Shown piece by piece: positions 4,263 through 60,897 of a stretch of DNA of 64,000 nt (its first letter is position 1; each line of letters begins with the position of its first letter). The translations under genes and the position numbers were made by a program. This DNA comes from Candidatus Magasanikbacteria bacterium RIFOXYC2_FULL_42_28 (lineage in GTDB: Bacteria > Patescibacteriota > Patescibacteriia > Magasanikbacterales > GWA2-37-8): assembly GCA_001784435.1 (NCBI GenBank), contig MFQZ01000001.1, positions 156,205 to 220,204 on the forward strand, given 5' to 3'. Below the pieces are notes generated by a model. It worked only from the letters and a program-made list of their open reading frames with translations, was not told the DNA's origin and did not search any database.

Positions 4263-4804
4263 GCTCCCCGCGCGGACTTCTTGTCAAACCTGACTCACAC
4301 CGGACACACTCCGGTATGGTGAGTCATCCTGCACATCTACAACGCCCAAAGCACTGTTATGCTCTCGGCGTTGTAGACGCACACTTGTAAAGAACTATCA
4401 TTATACCCTGCACCAGTCCGCACCATAGGCGGACGATGCAGGGCTAAACAAAACACCCCGCAACATTCGTCGCGGGGTGTGTGTAATTTTTATTTAACTT
4501 TACTTTGTAAAATTATTACACATTACCCCACGTCCAAACGGCAATACCAAAAAGGACAAGACCTTGATGGCCCAGCGTACGCGATTAATAATGTGTAAAT
4601 TATTTTTCATATATATTATATACTCTCATATCTGGAAAATATGTCAATAAAGTTATCCACAGGGCTTCGCCTTCGGCTACGCCCTGTAAACTTGGTTTAC
4701 CCGGCGTAGCGTAGCAAAGCCGGGCCATGTAAACTGGTGATAATATCTTTAAAATCAACTTCTTTGTCTAAATTATTTTGGCTAATTTTAGCCACTTTTA
4801 CCCC

Positions 4805-4833
4805 TTGACAAACTAACCAAAATGTGATACAAT
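4805..4833 (+). promoter_or_regulatory. sigma70-like promoter TTGACA-17-TACAAT upstream of glycosyltransferase
   Basis: ttgacaaactaaccaaaatgtgatacaat. Confidence 0.55.
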
Positions 4834-4882: not shown

Positions 4883-6046
4883 ATGAAAATCTTAATGATT
4901 GGACAAAAAGGCATACCAGCTCGCTACGGGGGCGTTGAACGCCACGTGGAAGAGTTGTCTTATGAATTGGCCAAACTCGGTCATGAAATTTTTGTATACG
5001 CGCGTTCTTGGTATACTCCCAAAAATATTAAAAATTATCGCGGTATCAATATTATCCATACCCCTTCTATCCACACCAAACATTTGGACGCGATTACTCA
5101 CACTTTAACTTCAACTCTTCACGCTTTGTTTCAAAAACCGGACGTGATTCATTATCATGGCGTGGGTCCGGCGTTATTGTCGTGGATCCCACGCTTGTTT
5201 TTGCCAAACACAAAAGTGGTGGCCACCTTTCATTGTATTGATCGTTACCACCAAAAGTGGAATTTCTTGGCGCGGTTTGCTTTGCGCGTGGGCGAATGGT
5301 TTACTTGCCATATTCCGCACGCGACTATTGCCGTGTCCGAGTCCTTGCGCAATTATTGTCTAAATGAACATCTTTGCCACACCCGTTATATCCCGAACGG
5401 CGCGCGCCCAATCGTGGACAAATCCAGTGAACTTTTAAATCAATTTGGTTTAAAACCGGAAAAATATCTTTTGATGGTGGCGCGTCTTGTCCGTCATAAA
5501 GGAGCGCAGTATTTAATTTCCGCTTGGAAAAATGCCCGCGCGTTAGAGTCAGAACTTTTGGCTGATTACAAATTGGCCATTGTCGGCGACAGTGTCTTCA
5601 CTGATGATTATGTCAAAGAATTACATACGCTGGCCAATAATTATAAAAGCATCATATTCGCCGGTTGGGTGGATGGAAAAAATTTAGAAGCGCTCTTCGC
5701 TAATACCGCTTTACTCGTGCACCCTTCGGAAAACGAAGGCTTGCCTCTCACCGTGCTGTCCGCGATGGCTGCCGGCCGACCGGTGTTGGTCTCGGATATT
5801 GCCGAACATCTGGAATTAATTAAAGATAAAAATTTCTTGTTCGCCAATACCAATATTGATGAATTAACCGAAAGAATAATCGCGCTCATCAAAGCGCCGG
5901 AGCTTCGACGCGAACAGGGCGCCAAAAATGCCGAACGCGCCCAAGCACATTACGACTGGGCCAAAATCGCCCGCCAAACGGAAAATATTTATTTGGCAAA
6001 AAGTCATGCCCTTGCACCCGCAAGAATCTCCACGGCAAGCAAATAA
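4883..6046 (+). CDS. glycosyltransferase family 4 (GT-B fold)
   Basis: C-terminal EX7E-type motif HPSENEGLPLTVLSAMAAGRPVLVSD; N-terminal GT4 core. Confidence 0.8.
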   Translation: MKILMIGQKGIPARYGGVERHVEELSYELAKLGHEIFVYARSWYTPKNIKNYRGINIIHTPSIHTKHLDAITHTLTSTLHALFQKPDVIHYHGVGPALLSWIPRLFLPNTKVVATFHCIDRYHQKWNFLARFALRVGEWFTCHIPHATIAVSESLRNYCLNEHLCHTRYIPNGARPIVDKSSELLNQFGLKPEKYLLMVARLVRHKGAQYLISAWKNARALESELLADYKLAIVGDSVFTDDYVKELHTLANNYKSIIFAGWVDGKNLEALFANTALLVHPSENEGLPLTVLSAMAAGRPVLVSDIAEHLELIKDKNFLFANTNIDELTERIIALIKAPELRREQGAKNAERAQAHYDWAKIARQTENIYLAKSHALAPARISTASK

Positions 6047-38612: not shown

Positions 38613-38672
38613 AGTGGAGATATAGTAGCAGAAAAAAACAAAAAAAGCAAGTTTGCTTTTTTAATTAATTAG

Positions 38673-38746
38673 TGGGCAATTCAGGAATCGAACCTGAGAC
38701 CTCGTCATTATCAGTGACGCGCTCTAACCATCTGAGCTAATTGCCC
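38673..38746 (-). tRNA. tRNA-Ile (anticodon GAT)
   Basis: Reverse complement gggcaattagctcagatggttagagcgcgtcactgataatgacgaggtctcaggttcgattcctgaattgccca. Confidence 0.85.
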
Positions 38747-38762
38747 GTTTTAAATACCTTGG

Positions 38763-38836
38763 TGGGCGACACAGGAGTTGAACCTGTGACCTTTACAATG
38801 TCAATGTAACGCTCTAACCAACTGAGCTAGTCGCCC
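38763..38836 (-). tRNA. tRNA-Val (anticodon GAC)
   Basis: Reverse complement gggcgactagctcagttggttagagcgttacattgacattgtaaaggtcacaggttcaactcctgtgtcgccca; anticodon loop ttgacat. Confidence 0.8.
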
Positions 38837-39057
38837 ATAATTTACAAACACTATACCAAATTAAAAGAAAAAAATCAAGCCCCCCTAAACCAGATGCTTC
38901 GCATCGGTTCAGGGCTACGCCATAAAAACAAAAACACCCCCGATAACGAGGGTGCTTAACAACACAAACGTGACAAAAACCCTCGTCTATAACTCCTCCC
39001 CCGACTGAGTCGGGGTTCGACTGGATACCGTTCGGCTTTCGCCAAACGAGTTCTCCG

Positions 39058-40657
<1,600 letters not shown>

Positions 40658-41164
40658 AAAAAAAGTTCAATTAAGAACTATCAGAGAAGAGTGAAAAAAA
40701 TTCACTCTGCTAGATTTGAATCTCTTTTGACTGCTAAAGCCAAAAAGAGTTCTGGATTTATTCTGTATGTACGTCTTTCATTGTTTGTACTCAACAAACA
40801 ACTAAGACAATGTTTAGAGAAATAGATTTTGTGATTTTTGTCACGATTTGTATTGTCAACGAACACTGCTTCGCTACGCTACGCAGTGCAAGCATCTACT
40901 TGGACACGTTGCGCAGTGTAAACTTTCTTTCTTTTTACAGAAAGAAAAAAGAGGAACCAAAAATTTCAGTTACTCTTTTTTCTTTCCAGTATCCTATCTA
41001 CCTAACATTCCAAACAACAGCTTTTGGACTTAGAAGAAATCAATTGTTATAAAGTACTTGGTTGCCTTGATTTGTATTAAGCAAACGCAGTTTAACATAT
41101 TGTCAGAAACCTGTCAAGGGGTGGTTTGGGGTAAGGTGGGGATAAAAAAACCTTGATGTGTAGA

Positions 41165-50842: not shown

Positions 50843-51799
50843 GTGCAAACAATCGCCAAACAAATATACAGCCGGCTCCTGTCGGCCAATAAAATCCTCA
50901 TCGTCTCGCACCAAAATCCGGACGGCGATACTTTGGGCGCGGGCACCGGACTTTTGGAAACTTTAAAAAACGCGGGCAAATCGGCGCGCCTTTTTTGCGC
51001 CACGCCCGCGCCGGCCAAATTTAATTATCTTCCCCATCACGACACTATCACTTCCGACCCGAGTGTATTTACCGACACAGACGTGGATACGGTCGTTGTG
51101 CTGGACTCCGGCGACTTGCGCTATGCCGGCGTGCATCATCATTTATATAACCACCGCGCTGAAATTATCAATATTGACCACCACCCGACCAACGAAAACT
51201 ACGGCGCGTATAATTTAGTGCGCACGGACTATTCATCCACTTCGGAAATTATTTTCCATTTTTTGCGTTTCAATGGCGCGCGCTTAAATCATTTATCCGC
51301 CACCGCCCTACTCACTGGCATTATCACCGACACCGATAATTTCACCAACGCCGCAACCAGTGCCCGCGCTATGGCCGTTGCTTCGGAATTAATCGCCACC
51401 GGCGCCAATTTAAATTTAATTAACGCCCGCACAGTCCAAAACAAAACCGTCGGCAGTTTGCGTTTGTGGGGATTGGTGTTGTCACGCTTGGTCAAACACT
51501 CCGATGACCTGGCCTCTACTTATGTCAAGAATGAAGATTGGAAAAATCACGATGTGCCCGAAAGTGAAGCCGAAGGCATTGCGAATTTTTTAAATAATTT
51601 AGACAGCGCCAAGGCCGCCTTAATTTTAAAAGAAACCCCCGACGGCAAAATCAAAGGCAGTTTTCGCACCACCCGCGATGATACCGATGTGGCGGCGATG
51701 GCCAAACGTTTGGGTGGTGGTGGGCATAAAAAAGCGGCGGGGTTTACAGTAGAGGGGACGGTTGAGAGTGTGTTAGCGCGAATTTTGACAAATACATAA
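50843..51799 (+). CDS. nrnA: DHH/DHHA1 phosphoesterase (NrnA-like oligoribonuclease / pAp phosphatase)
   Basis: HQNPDGDTLGAG, DHH at INIDHHPTN, GGGHKKAAGF; GTG start. Confidence 0.8.
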   Translation: MQTIAKQIYSRLLSANKILIVSHQNPDGDTLGAGTGLLETLKNAGKSARLFCATPAPAKFNYLPHHDTITSDPSVFTDTDVDTVVVLDSGDLRYAGVHHHLYNHRAEIINIDHHPTNENYGAYNLVRTDYSSTSEIIFHFLRFNGARLNHLSATALLTGIITDTDNFTNAATSARAMAVASELIATGANLNLINARTVQNKTVGSLRLWGLVLSRLVKHSDDLASTYVKNEDWKNHDVPESEAEGIANFLNNLDSAKAALILKETPDGKIKGSFRTTRDDTDVAAMAKRLGGGGHKKAAGFTVEGTVESVLARILTNT

Positions 51800-51823: not shown

Positions 51824-51935
51824 AATGTCAAAATCCAAATTTCCAATTTCCAATCAAATCCTAATATCAAATGTCAAAATTTGAACTTTGGACTTTGAAA
51901 TTGATTTGACATTGGAAATTTGACATTTGAAATTA
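51824..51935. repeat. family A element abutting clpP start
   Basis: atgtcaaaatccaaatttccaatttccaatcaaatcc...ttgatttgacattggaaatttgacatttgaaatt. Confidence 0.7.
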
Positions 51936-51940
51936 ACATT

Positions 51941-52525
51941 ATGAACTCCCAAATCCTCATCCCCACCGTCATCGAAAAATCCTCTATGGGCGAACGCGCC
52001 TATGACATTTATTCGCGTCTACTTTTGGATCGCATAATTTTCTTAGGCCAAGCCATTGACGACCATGTCGCCAACATCGTCATCGCCCAACTATTATTTT
52101 TAGAAAACCAATCGCCGGAAAAAGATATTAAATTATATATCAATTCCCCGGGCGGATCCGTTACGGCCGGCCTCGCGATTTACGACACCATGCAATATAT
52201 CAAACCAGATGTGTCTACCATTTGCGTGGGTATGGCGGCGTCAATGGGCGCGGTCTTACTTGCCGCCGGCGCCAAAGGCAAACGATTGGCTCTCCCCAAT
52301 TCCGAAATTATGATTCACCAAGTAATGGGCGGAATGGAAGGCCAGGCCTCGGACATCAAAATCCACGCCGAAAGAATTTTAAAAACCAAAGACAGTTTAA
52401 ATAAAATTTTAGTCAAACACACGGGCAAAGACTTGGCGACAGTGGAAAATGACACCGACCGTGATCACTTTTTGAGCGCTTTGGAAGCAAAAAATTACGG
52501 TTTAATTGATAAGGTGATTGAATAA
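51941..52525 (+). CDS. clpP: ATP-dependent Clp protease proteolytic subunit
   Basis: [11 protein letters not shown] active-site Ser, MIHQ His. Start moved to [12 protein letters not shown]; the upstream track residues translate repeat A. Confidence 0.9.
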
Positions 52526-52531
52526 AATTAT

Positions 52532-52756
52532 ATGTCCGGAAAAAATAACCTTGGACGTCTATCTGAATTGGCTGAAGAATTAAGGCGACCACCCAGCGAG
52601 CAAGCCGGTGACACTTGGGAGGACGGCACAAACATAGATTGGGGTGAATTAACAGCTGAAAACGACAAGTTAATGGCAAGTTTAAGAAAACGAGCGGAAA
52701 ATGGCGACGAAGAAGCACGGCAGACATTGGAAGATTTTTATAAGAACCTACCATAA
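52532..52756 (+). CDS. hypothetical small acidic protein
   Basis: 74-aa ORF directly after clpP; hairpin terminator at 52765-52798. Confidence 0.35.
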   Translation: MSGKNNLGRLSELAEELRRPPSEQAGDTWEDGTNIDWGELTAENDKLMASLRKRAENGDEEARQTLEDFYKNLP

Positions 52757-52880
52757 GCATAGCAATCATTCCGACTAAGTTGGGATGATTTTTATTTTCG
52801 CTTATTTTAGCCAAAAAAAGGCAATTATCCACCTTGTCAAGGGTGCAGGTCTTGACAAAACCTTAAAAATGTGCTATACT

Positions 52881-53180
52881 ATGTAGTTGCTGATAACAGT
52901 GCCGTATTTGAATAAACGGAAGAACTGATAGCAAGAAGTATCCCATTAAATAACATTAACGGCAAGAACTGGATATAGGCGTTTATTCTTTTGAAAAAGA
53001 GCTTAAACGCCCGTATCCACGACAAGCATGGGGATGTGTTGGCGGATAGTACAGGCGCAAGCTCGTCTTCTCCATTAACACATCTTCTTGGATGCGGACT
53101 ATTCCCACTGACTTTGTCGGCGGGAGCAAAAAAAACACCACGAACCCAATCAGGTTCGTGGTTTTATATTATTTTTTTAA
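52881..53180 (+). ncRNA. candidate about 300-nt structured non-coding RNA of unknown class
   Basis: TTGACA-17-TATACT promoter at 52847-52875; intrinsic terminator ccacgaacccaatcaggttcgtgg plus a T-run at about 53140-53180; extensive internal complementarity; no credible ORF. Confidence 0.4.
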
Positions 53181-53300
53181 ACACTAAATACTAAACCCTA
53201 AATTCTAAACAAATTCAAAATCCAAATGTCCAAAAGTAATTGATTTGAATTTTTAAAATTTGAATTTGTTTAGAATTTAGTATTTAGAGTTTAGAATTTT
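53181..53300. repeat. family C palindromic element
   Basis: aaacactaaatactaaaccctaaattctaaac...gtttagaatttagtatttagagtttagaatttt. Confidence 0.6.
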
Positions 53301-55258
53301 TACTCTACGGCCGGCTCCGTGCTCAAAACAGTAGCCGGCGAACTACCACCACTAACTCCAATTGTTGTGCTACTTGTCGCCCCCACCAAACATATCTGAG
53401 GTAAAGCTCGATAAAAACTTTCAAACACGCGATCAATTTTTTCGCCTGCCGGGGTAATGCGACTATATTCAAAACTCGCGACCGCGCCTTTATACGCGCC
53501 TTGGCAGGTCTCCACGCCCGGTTTTAAATTTTCCGTATAAGTGATTTGTTTTGCTCCCGGCGAAATCCATTTGCTTACGATTGGATGCGTGTACCAACCT
53601 TTGCGTCCGTCTAATTTTCCCCATAACGTAAAAACCAATTCCATTTTTTTATAATCCGCTTCCGCTTGTAAAAGCAAATATCCACCCGTATCATTTAAAA
53701 ATTTCAAATCCAAAGACGGCTCATACAAAGTGGCGTCTGTTCCCGGATTGCCATTGACCGGATCGGCGTAATAACTGACGACCAAAGAATGATTGCGCCG
53801 TTGGGTGATATCCATTCCCGAATTCATCGCCATCCGAAACATCGTCGTGCCGATTTGACACATCCCCCCACCCACCTCCGCTTTTATTTCATTGCCTTTG
53901 ATAACCAATTCCGGCAGGTAGCCATTTTCTTCAGTATAAGGACTGGAATATTTATTGGTAGAAAAATCTTCACCCGGTTTTATCAAAATCCCATTTAATA
54001 ATTTGACGGCATTGGCAATATTTTTAATCCGATTGGTATGACTGCCGACAAACGATGACACGCCCACGCCAATCACCCCTTCAATTCCCAAATCATTTAA
54101 GCTGGCCATCTGCACTTTTGGTTCCGCCACGGCAACGGTTAGGCCCACGGTTTTACTCAAACTGGCCGGATGATAATTACGCTCCTCAAACGCCTTGGCC
54201 AAATCCGTATAAGTTTTTTCTAAATCAATTCGCAATCCGACCGCGCTGGCCTGGAATTCTTTTACTTTATCATTTTCCATCACAAACTTGGCATCACGCG
54301 CCGGCACGTCCACGTCTTGGCGCTGTTGTTCCAAATATTCACCCATTTTTCCGCTATCCAAAGAAAAAATAATCACACCACTCGCGTCTTTTTTCAAGCG
54401 CAACCATTCCCCCATTTGCGTGGCAGTAATTACCCACTCTCGGCGCGCTTTGGTCTGCGGGGCAATATAATTTAACGATAGATTACCGTAATTCAAAATT
54501 TCCGAAACGCGGGGCGCGACCGCTTGCGCGTCTTTTAAAGTAATTGCCGGGTCAAAATATTTCGCTTCCAATTTAATCGTGTTAAAACGCAATTGTCCTA
54601 AATCAGTTTTTATTTGGTTGATTATCACCGGAATATCAAAATTTTGTCCGGCCATTTCCGGAATTATTTCCATCTGTCCCGTCGGCCAATCGTGAAACAC
54701 CACACCGGCATCGCGCGGATCATCGGATAATTTTTTTAAATTGTCGCGCAAAATTTCCGTAGCGGACAAATCATTGATAACCACGGGCGCGACCAATACC
54801 ACTTTTTTAAAACGTAAAAATAACGGGTAAAATAATTTTTCATACCACGCCCCGGCGCGACCGACACCCAAAGATAAATCAACCAAACTGTCGCCGTCAA
54901 ACGCCAATATTTCCGCGACCGTATCGCTGTCTGAAACCGTGTTGATTTTAAAAGACATATCGGCGCGCGCGGTGTGAGCGTCAAACGCCACCCCCTCTTT
55001 GGCCAAGCGATCATTCAAATCTTCAATAAATTTTTTAACTTCCGCACCGGTGCTTCCACCCAAATGGTACGATCCGACCGAAACCCCCGGATAAACTTCG
55101 TCTTGATAAATTGAGACATACGCGGCGCTCGCGCCAAACACAACAGCAATAAACACCGCGACAATTAACAAAAAAACACCGGCGAATTTAAAAATTCTCC
55201 GACCACGCGTGGGTGGTGTTGATAACAAAGGAGTTAAATTTTCTAGAATATCTGACAT
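53300..55258 (-). CDS. VanW-family protein with N-terminal TM anchor
   Basis: C-terminal VanW core GGGMCQIGTTMFRMAMNSGMDITQRRNHS. Confidence 0.7.
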   Translation of the reverse strand: MSDILENLTPLLSTPPTRGRRIFKFAGVFLLIVAVFIAVVFGASAAYVSIYQDEVYPGVSVGSYHLGGSTGAEVKKFIEDLNDRLAKEGVAFDAHTARADMSFKINTVSDSDTVAEILAFDGDSLVDLSLGVGRAGAWYEKLFYPLFLRFKKVVLVAPVVINDLSATEILRDNLKKLSDDPRDAGVVFHDWPTGQMEIIPEMAGQNFDIPVIINQIKTDLGQLRFNTIKLEAKYFDPAITLKDAQAVAPRVSEILNYGNLSLNYIAPQTKARREWVITATQMGEWLRLKKDASGVIIFSLDSGKMGEYLEQQRQDVDVPARDAKFVMENDKVKEFQASAVGLRIDLEKTYTDLAKAFEERNYHPASLSKTVGLTVAVAEPKVQMASLNDLGIEGVIGVGVSSFVGSHTNRIKNIANAVKLLNGILIKPGEDFSTNKYSSPYTEENGYLPELVIKGNEIKAEVGGGMCQIGTTMFRMAMNSGMDITQRRNHSLVVSYYADPVNGNPGTDATLYEPSLDLKFLNDTGGYLLLQAEADYKKMELVFTLWGKLDGRKGWYTHPIVSKWISPGAKQITYTENLKPGVETCQGAYKGAVASFEYSRITPAGEKIDRVFESFYRALPQICLVGATSSTTIGVSGGSSPATVLSTEPAVE

Positions 55259-55263
55259 AAAAA

Positions 55264-55695
55264 TTATTCTTCCACCACAAAAATTGGTATCTTATTATCC
55301 GCTTGTTTTTTTGGTAAACGCACTGTTAATACACCGTTACGATATTCGGCTTTGGCAAATTCCGGCGCGACATCGGTCGGCAACACAATCGTGCGAGAAA
55401 ATTTTCCCCAATAACATTCTTCATAAAAATGTTCCGCGCCATTTGGAATTGGCGTGGCACGTTCACCTCGAATTGTTAAAACATCGTTATGTAAATGCAA
55501 TTCTACTTTATCGGGAGTGGCACCCGCCATCGTAGCAACAATGATTAACTCTTCGGCGGTTTGCGCCACATCAATTGATAATTGCCCTTCAGATTCATGG
55601 CGTGCGCCCGACGGCGCGAGTTGCGCTGCTAATTCAATCCCCTCCTCCATTGGCACATTATCTGATAAAAATACCGATTGATTGTTAGTGAACAT
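55264..55695 (-). CDS. Hsp20/alpha-crystallin small heat-shock protein
   Basis: Alpha-crystallin domain ending GVLTVRLPKK. Confidence 0.85.
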   Translation of the reverse strand: MFTNNQSVFLSDNVPMEEGIELAAQLAPSGARHESEGQLSIDVAQTAEELIIVATMAGATPDKVELHLHNDVLTIRGERATPIPNGAEHFYEECYWGKFSRTIVLPTDVAPEFAKAEYRNGVLTVRLPKKQADNKIPIFVVEE

Positions 55696-60773: not shown

Positions 60774-60813
60774 ATATTTATTGCTTATGCGTTCTTAAAC
60801 TATTGAGTCGTCG

Positions 60814-60897
60814 TGCGCGGGAGAGGACTCGAACCTCCATGCCCTTGCGAGCGTTACCACCTCAAGGTAGTGCGTCTACCAGTTTCGCCACCCGCGC
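60814..60897 (-). tRNA. tRNA-Leu (anticodon GAG), long variable arm
   Basis: Reverse complement gcgcgggtggcgaaactggtagacgcactaccttgaggtggtaacgctcgcaagggcatggaggttcgagtcctctcccgcgca; 7-bp acceptor stem, 3-bp D stem. Confidence 0.8.

Follow-up and report, generated by a model that had tools for sequence, protein, structure and literature searches.

Does the DNA between clpP and the convergent vanW gene encode an RNA and, if so, of what kind? The window, that is, the whole 64-kb stretch of DNA analysed here, had been read by eye before, and the original prediction described a non-coding unit of about 300 nt downstream of clpP with a strong promoter and terminator, proposing a novel or lineage-specific structured RNA. 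We followed this up by collecting homologous loci and comparing their sequence, predicted folds and gene order. Comparative conservation and covariation are the decisive evidence that the locus is more than a chance arrangement, and we judge, with a probability of about 0.9, that it holds a genuine, previously undescribed family of structured non-coding RNA.

The transcription unit

The unit, its promoter and its terminator all lie where the original prediction had placed them (Table 1). The candidate RNA gene occupies 52885-53170 of the plus strand, about 285 nt, and forms a stand-alone unit between clpP and vanW. Transcription probably starts at AGUUGC, as judged from the position of the promoter.

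Table 1. Features of the clpP-vanW region, in window coordinates
Feature	Position	Strand	Remarks
DHH/DHHA1 phosphoesterase gene	50843-51799	+	upstream of clpP
clpP	51941-52525	+	5' neighbour of the RNA locus
Orphan 74-aa acidic ORF	52532-52756	+	between clpP and the RNA
Terminator after the 74-aa ORF	52764-52790		separate terminator on the clpP side
Upstream promoter elements	52807-52833	+	TTAGCCAAAAAA and TTATCCACC
Promoter, sigma-70 type	52852-52880	+	TTGACA (52852-52857), 17 nt, TG-n-TATACT (TATACT at 52875-52880)
Variable 5' domain	52885-52970	+	second GUAUCC copy at 52937-52942; alignments A1, A2
A:B hairpin	52971-53018	+	A GGAUAUAGGCGUUU (52971-52984), variable apex, B AAACGCCCGUAUCC (53005-53018); MFE fold
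Conserved core	53011-53097	+	P1, J1/2, P2 and UU linker, ~95 nt; RNAalifold consensus
P1	53011-53018 with 53090-53097	+	CCGUAUCC (strand B) with GGAUGCGG (strand C)
Loop J1/2	53019-53029	+	ACGACAAGCAU, 11 nt
P2	53030-53087	+	long irregular hairpin, ~30 pairs, fixed mismatches
UU linker	53088-53089	+	between P2 and strand C
P3	53104-53124	+	G+C-rich hairpin, CCCACUGAC-UUU-GUCGGCGGG, sequence variable
A-rich linker and intrinsic terminator	53125-53179	+	stem ACCACGAACC-CAATCA-GGTTCGTGGT (53137-53162), then T-run (U-tract)
VanW/PG_binding_4 gene	53300-55258	-	convergent with the RNA
hsp20	55264-55695	-	beyond vanW

The promoter has an extended -10 element and agrees with the consensus at 11 of 12 positions. 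Only one other match of this 11/12 type lies between 51700 and 53500, a stretch that holds 8 promoter-like sites in all, with 4.8 ± 1.9 expected. A promoter of the same form precedes the RNA in 47 of the 48 homologues with enough upstream sequence. Upstream of it, TTAGCCAAAAAA is the 3' half of a GGCTAA-NN-TTAGCC palindrome and TTATCCACC lies 18 nt upstream of the -35 element. Elements of the TTAGCC type (a GGCUAA-NN-UUAGCC-type palindrome followed by A-runs) stand at a fixed distance in 34 of 45 homologous promoters, and TTATCCMC is found in 29 of the 45, at -17/-18 or -27/-28 from the -35 element. The palindrome followed by ACCCC-TTGACA also occurs at 4770-4830, and TTATCCCCA-N19-TTGACA occurs upstream of the 16S gene at about 41137 (minus strand), where a DnaA-box-like copy stands 19 nt before a TTGACA promoter 454 nt upstream of the gene. 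DnaA-box-like TTATCCACA 9-mers, with at most one mismatch, number 37 in the window (15.6 expected) and lie mostly on the plus strand, with copies at, for example, 4653, 41137 (minus), 52825 and 62696. Since these upstream elements recur at other promoters of the window, they are to be regarded as general promoter elements and not as specific to the RNA. The architecture common to the RNA promoter and the presumed rRNA promoter suggests expression of the stable-RNA type, the likeness being to one promoter, that 454 nt upstream of the 16S gene.

The fuller form of the palindrome, TTGGCTAA-TT-TTAGCCA followed by ACCCC-TTGACA, was seen at 4770-4830 and at 52795-52857 of the window, at many related loci and at unrelated promoters, and may serve a global regulator as its operator or else be a promoter element peculiar to the lineage. 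The 16S rRNA gene itself is followed by tRNA-Val(GAC) and tRNA-Ile(GAU) at 38672-40663 (minus), and its helix 45 has an unusual sequence (GCAUGUGUAGC-GGAA-GCUGCGCAUG). No 23S or 5S rRNA was detected anywhere in the 64 kb, and the rRNA genes are apparently unlinked.

At the other end of the unit, the terminator is a G+C-rich hairpin of 10-11 bp that was called on both strands. The A-rich linker before it is explained by this bidirectionality, its A-run serving on the minus strand as the U-tract for the convergent vanW gene. Under strict criteria, a terminator-like hairpin with a T-run follows the RNA in 41 of 47 homologues; the sequence of the stem varies among them and its pairing is kept.

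As to the surroundings, the 74-aa ORF has no homologue but itself among 5.8 billion proteins, and in the homologous locus L005 an unrelated 92-aa ORF takes its place; it is probably not a conserved gene. The clpP-RNA unit is flanked by two related AT-rich long inverted repeats (51824-51934 and 53179-53299), with arms of 55-56 nt that are 75-79% complementary and with the direct-repeat families D1 and D2 in common. These repeats, which produce spurious microRNA matches in Rfam, look like a dispersed palindromic intergenic element.

Homologues and genomic context

Contigs encoding VanW homologues of 49-75% identity were fetched, a route to relatives that does not depend on any RNA pattern. The RNA was present in the clpP-vanW gap of all eight loci obtained in this way, as detected by nhmmer or a covariance model, and the order hsp20 - vanW - gap - clpP - DHH was the same in every one. 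Between genomes whose VanW proteins are 57-75% identical the RNA is 79-91% identical, and between those with about 50% VanW identity the RNA core is still 80-100% identical. Degenerate core patterns derived from the first alignment were also scanned over genome contigs and metagenomes. The genome contigs yielded 12 GTDB species representatives with the RNA: six named Magasanikbacteria, one "Patescibacteria group" and five TPA assemblies labelled "uncultured Gammaproteobacteria". The last label is doubtful, since the DHH-clpP-RNA-vanW-hsp20 locus of CPR type is present in all five (L015, L018, L019, L020 and L024), and their ClpP is 80-84% identical to the window's. From the metagenomes 63 stretches were recovered, of which 44 proved true by nhmmer and later by covariance model; the other 19 are roughly as many as chance alone would be expected to give. 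Altogether 51 distinct homologous cores were obtained, one of them on a 33-kb phage contig. With model R1, 53 loci score 77-128 bits and the 19 chance pattern matches do not score at all; in the 64-kb window the model detects one copy only. The predicted RNAs range from about 200 to 320 nt.

In nearly all loci that extend far enough, DHH, clpP and the RNA run in one direction and are met by vanW and hsp20 running in the other, the exceptions being L032, L034 and L056. These aside, the RNA is kept beside clpP in every Magasanikbacteria genome examined. As far as the scanned contigs and metagenomes reach, the family is confined to Magasanikbacteria-type CPR bacteria, plus one phage, and has a fixed core-genome position downstream of clpP.

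Two loci deserve separate mention. L056 lacks clpP and vanW and has unrelated neighbours around the RNA; directly 3' of the RNA, at 596-975, lies a tRNA gene (anticodon region CUGUUAA), probably for Asn, into which a group I intron (Rfam, 110 bits) is inserted. In L010 (GW2011_GWA2_37_8) the P3 and terminator of the RNA are replaced by unrelated sequence at 5381-5480, whereas L009, an ENA contig with an identical VanW protein, has the complete RNA, a difference that reflects either an assembly artefact or a strain-level rearrangement.

Conserved structure of the RNA

The 287-nt stretch folds with a minimum free energy (MFE) of -98.4 kcal/mol, against -66.0 ± 4.8 kcal/mol for shuffled sequences (z = -6.7; none of 200 shuffles as good). 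Two complementarities pointed out from the sequence at the start belong to this fold, gatgtgtt/aacacatc as the base of helix P2 and ggcgttt...aaacgcc as the inner part of the A:B hairpin. The 5' part is loosely constrained: among homologues the 5' domain measures 40-155 nt, and L013, L018, L019, L037 and L075 have a very short one. A 5' hairpin reads GUUGCU/AGCAAG in the window and, with covarying pairs, GUUACU/AGUAAC in L005. Some 120 nt at the 5' end of the window RNA are variable, and shorter family members lack them. Judged by conservation, then, the functional part is only the 3' ~120 nt, which refines the earlier picture of a 300-nt RNA. A conserved stem closing the 5' and 3' ends was found in the short variants L018, L019 and L075, but it is not general among homologues.

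Within the core, the J1/2 loop is shortened to GCAAGCAU in one subgroup, and the pairs just above it are kept, with A-U alternating with G-U. The apex of P2 reads ACAGGC-loop-GCUCGU throughout the family, and the loop between these strands varies freely: 23 of 51 sequences have UUCG, 4 have UCAG and 2 have GCAA, with 18 loops besides UUCG; in the window the cap is GGC-GCAA-GCU (53054-53063). A short U-rich spacer separates strand C from P3. In all 48 of 48 sequences CAAGCAUGG, GGC, GCUCGU and UCUUCUU are invariant. Constancy of CAAGCAUGG, of ACAGGC...GCUCGU and of UCUUCUU shows a constraint on the core sequence well above what base pairing would need.

Compensatory changes were found in P1, P2 and P3. 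For P1 and P2, counted on the MAFFT alignment, 96.2% of the cells of the consensus are standard pairs and 13 of the 28 pairs are changed on both sides; none of 500 shuffles matches any of five covariation measures, and registers slid out of place are only 41-54% paired. For P3, assessed on the model-fitted alignment A4, all four modelled pairs are changed on both sides. The RNA is placed on the plus strand because the invariant G-U pairs fit only that strand and because model R1 scores 116.9 bits on the plus strand versus 27.6 on the minus strand.

Could the locus instead be a gene for a small protein, or an element acting as DNA, such as an origin or a recombination site? Short ORFs are present on both strands and DnaA-box-like TTATCCAC motifs lie upstream. 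However, the plus-strand ORFs 52991-53194 and 53092-53187 both run through the terminator, in line with the earlier observation that no internal ORF stops before it. Of six frames across the conserved core none is stop-free in all 48 homologues, the best being open in 36, and the indels of the core alignment are not multiples of three. The compensatory substitutions and G-U pairs fitting the plus strand only also speak against this explanation, which we consider hardly credible. An origin of replication in particular, suggested by DnaA-box-like motifs and AT-rich palindromes, was rejected: GC skew keeps one sign across the window, and the TTATCCAC-like motif is enriched window-wide and not clustered at the locus.

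Searches for known RNA families

At the gathering score, Rfam 15 reported only the 16S rRNA and tRNAs over the whole window and no family at the RNA. Lowering the threshold to E ≤ 10 for 52700-53320 produced matches only to microRNA and sRNA models, on the AT-rich palindrome 53179-53299 or on the terminator (the artefacts being models of the MIR series, MicC and trpB), and among 14 homologous loci no match recurred over the RNA at the same threshold. ARAGORN found no tmRNA in the window and nothing at the RNA locus. These searches agree with the failure to see RNase P, tmRNA or SRP motifs by eye, and, together with the covariation in 51 homologues and the lack of a coding frame, they bear out the proposal of a novel, lineage-specific structured RNA. 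We found no description of such an RNA from CPR bacteria in the literature. Elsewhere in the window, at 60813-60897 (minus), Rfam reports an 85-nt tRNA (47 bits) that ARAGORN lists as tRNA-??? with a 'tg' anticodon.

Individual candidates were rejected on further grounds. For 6S RNA, the Rfam models matched neither the window region nor any of the 14 homologous loci, whether at the gathering score or at E ≤ 10, and the consensus loop, with 11 nt on the 5' strand versus 2 nt on the 3' strand, is not a two-sided bubble of the open-promoter type. SRP RNA would call for a conserved GNRA loop and the AGCA/GG symmetric-loop motif, neither of which is present, and Rfam gave no match. In the case of tmRNA, there is no ARAGORN match in the window and no conserved reading frame; a sub-threshold tmRNA match in L056 is the T-arm of the intron-containing tRNA downstream of the RNA. 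RNase P RNA gave no match even at E ≤ 10, and the conserved core is a single 95-nt hairpin module. By criteria that can be tested on sequence, the RNA is not 6S, SRP, tmRNA or RNase P RNA. A likeness by eye to the 3' end of 16S rRNA (h44/h45 linker, anti-SD) was rejected too, since local alignment of the RNA to the 16S of the window, in sense and antisense, was no better than for shuffles.

A competing helix and the phage copy

Strand B (CYGUAUCC) has two potential partners: segment A (GGAUAYRG) upstream and strand C (GGAURCRG) downstream compete for it. In single-sequence MFE folds B usually pairs with A and not with C, giving the long A:B hairpin, and the contested stretch is the outer 8 nt of B, the same 8 nt that form P1. 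Where position -7 of B has changed from C to U, strand C shows the corresponding change from G to A in 7 of 7 cases, and the partner in segment A is A (4) or G (3); at position -8 the partner in A follows B (UA in 6) and that in C does not (UU); at position -4 a GC replaces an AU pair in A:B. From -8 to -12 only A:B covaries, and its inner pairs (-9 to -12) show 4-5 pair types per position, the partners in A having been read from single-sequence MFE folds, which inflates the apparent pairing. This distribution of pairs argues that the inner A:B stem is a constant hairpin and that the outer part of B is contested by two near-identical segments, both under selection. For 38 homologues, whose total fold energies are -55 to -105 kcal/mol, the predicted difference between forcing P1 and forbidding the pairing of C averages +1.1 kcal/mol (median 0.95, range -7 to +6); so small a difference suggests that the family is near-bistable. 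The RNA has two mutually exclusive covarying helices of similar predicted energy. Covariation of A:B would be seen just as well with a conserved helix that forms only transiently during folding, without any regulated switch.

A natural variant bears on the choice between the two folds. L034, the family member that has diverged most, and the 33-kb viral genome L100 of IMG/VR (UViG_3300009149_000152) are one and the same contig; the copy, at 3443-3645 of L100 (L034 113-236), was found by nhmmer with E = 1e-6 before its inclusion in any model. Next to it lie genes for a DNA methyltransferase, for the large subunit of a terminase (PHROG 38, E = 4e-101; Pfam Terminase_6N) and for a portal of the SU10 type, and the contig has no clpP or vanW. 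The copy has its own terminator and its own promoter, TTGACC-17-TATACT, preceded by TTATCCACA and TTGTCCACA. It retains CAAGCAUGG, ACAGGC-UCAG-GCUCGU and UCUUCUUGGAU, with compensatory changes in the P2 stem, and has neither segment A nor P3. According to fold prediction, the flanks of B and C pair with each other, so that the RNA forms one rod with a P1 of roughly 20 bp. A rod without A suggests that the RNA works in its P1-closed form and that the A segment of the host was added for regulation or folding, this being drawn from a single example, the one phage copy among IMG/VR genomes scanned with two patterns (the second viral pattern scan gave one chance match only).

The mutually exclusive helices, which covary and are close in energy, are typical of attenuators, and the RNA keeps its place between clpP and the convergent vanW; both could point to a cis element, either a riboswitch or attenuator on read-through transcripts antisense to vanW-hsp20 or an element of the clpP 3'-UTR. 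Such a role is nevertheless very unlikely, since the RNA has its own promoter in 47 of 48 homologues, clpP has its separate terminator, the switching helices do not overlap the terminator of the RNA (P3 and the terminator fold independently in every homologue), and the phage copy and L056 have entirely different neighbours. No co-directional gene follows the RNA. A riboswitch or leader in a 5'-UTR was rejected for the same region, a terminator and a convergent gene following the RNA in more than 40 loci.

Possible function

From these observations we tentatively propose, at somewhat less than even odds, that the RNA is a gated module that binds a protein or ligand and acts in trans. The active form would be the P1-closed rod, in which P1, J1/2 and P2 together would make a putative binding site for a protein, possibly for a small ligand. 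The rod would act in trans as a stable RNP, a decoy or a scaffold. In the host RNA the A:B helix would gate this candidate site, either as a bistable switch or as a transient helix of co-transcriptional folding, and the phage copy would be a constitutively active version that taps the same host factor.

A different way of acting in trans is by base pairing. Here the J1/2 loop ACGACAAGCAU, or the freed strand C with UCUUCUU, would be the seed of a small RNA, and the A:B / B:C switch would set its exposure. A stand-alone gene with an intrinsic terminator suits such an sRNA, as does an invariant unpaired stretch of 9-11 nt in a conserved scaffold, loop conservation being expected of a seed too, and one GGAUAYRG copy is unpaired in either fold. 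Yet no complementary site was found in the 64-kb window except the antisense of the RNA itself, nor in 414 kb of related loci, and duplexes with the start regions of DHH, clpP, vanW and hsp20 were no better than those of shuffles (mean z -0.6 to +0.1). Most of the conserved positions are in helices, an unusual arrangement for sRNAs of the seed type. We regard base pairing as unlikely and favour the binding module over it because of the invariance inside helices and in a one-sided loop, a pattern shown by sites that bind proteins or ligands or make tertiary contacts.

Equally unlikely in our estimate is a CPR-specific housekeeping RNP or regulatory RNA that would serve as a switchable decoy for RNA polymerase, the ribosome or an RNase. 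It would be made from an rRNA-like promoter, and the phage would have captured and simplified it in a constitutively folded form to manipulate the same host target.

The RNA might also be a functional analogue of 6S, a rod-like decoy for RNA polymerase holoenzyme that mimics an open promoter, J1/2 being its template strand; synthesis of a product RNA into B would then open P1, and A:B would lock the released form. An abundant-RNA-type promoter resembling that of rRNA, presence across the lineage in single copy, the rod shape of the phage copy, a loop with G-C pairs on either side and the conservation of an alternative fold, a hallmark of 6S release, are all consistent with this. On the other hand, 6S models found no match even at E ≤ 10, the bubble of 11 nt versus 2 nt (UU) offers no non-template -10 mimic, P1 is only 8 bp in host copies, and the 5' and 3' ends lack a conserved closing stem. 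We think a 6S analogue improbable, more so than a base-pairing sRNA. The gated binding module therefore stays our preferred, if tentative, reading.

Significance and comparison with known systems

A large part of bacterial diversity belongs to the CPR/Patescibacteria, nearly all of them uncultured and all with very small genomes; to our knowledge, almost nothing is known of regulatory RNAs in this group. The preservation of an RNA at one locus throughout an order makes it a strong candidate for a core role overlooked by protein-centred annotation. The RNA described here is more conserved than the flanking proteins, has an rRNA-like promoter and was copied by a phage. The competing helices and the natural "switch-less" phage variant make a directly testable structure-function hypothesis, and the alignment and model R1 would let the family be annotated in metagenomes. 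What is new is the family; lineage-specific structured non-coding RNA as a kind is already known.

Among known RNAs, 6S RNA (SsrS) is similar in size class, in a strong housekeeping-type promoter and single copy, and in a rod-like core whose internal loop is flanked by G-C pairs and which has a conserved alternative fold. The clpP-linked RNA differs from it in a one-sided loop (11 nt versus 2 nt), in having no 5'/3' closing stem and in giving no covariance-model match. Like bacterial SRP (4.5S) RNA, it comes from a gene of the stable-RNA type and has a long irregular hairpin in which conserved internal mismatches lie close to a tetraloop, but its apical loop is not a conserved GNRA, and the strands adjacent to the loop are ACAGGC and GCUCGU. 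Riboswitch and attenuator RNAs resemble it in two exclusive covarying helices on one strand, a P1-closed module and an invariant internal loop; in contrast to riboswitches, it has no downstream gene or expression platform, its competitor lies upstream of the module, and its terminator is constitutive. The phage copy, as a diverged and simplified version with its own promoter and terminator, is comparable to phage mimics of host RNAs (tRNAs, tmRNA, RNA anti-CRISPR repeats).

The orphan non-coding RNAs raiA, OLE, GOLLD, ROOL and HEARO are likewise known from a covariation-supported structure with strongly conserved nucleotides, are the leader of no gene and belong to one lineage; GOLLD and ROOL also occur on phage genomes, as the clpP-linked RNA does. 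None of the five resembles it in sequence or by model (Rfam 15), and the clpP-linked RNA is much smaller than OLE, GOLLD and ROOL. What sets it apart from these orphan RNAs is that it is specific to CPR bacteria and carries a built-in competing helix.
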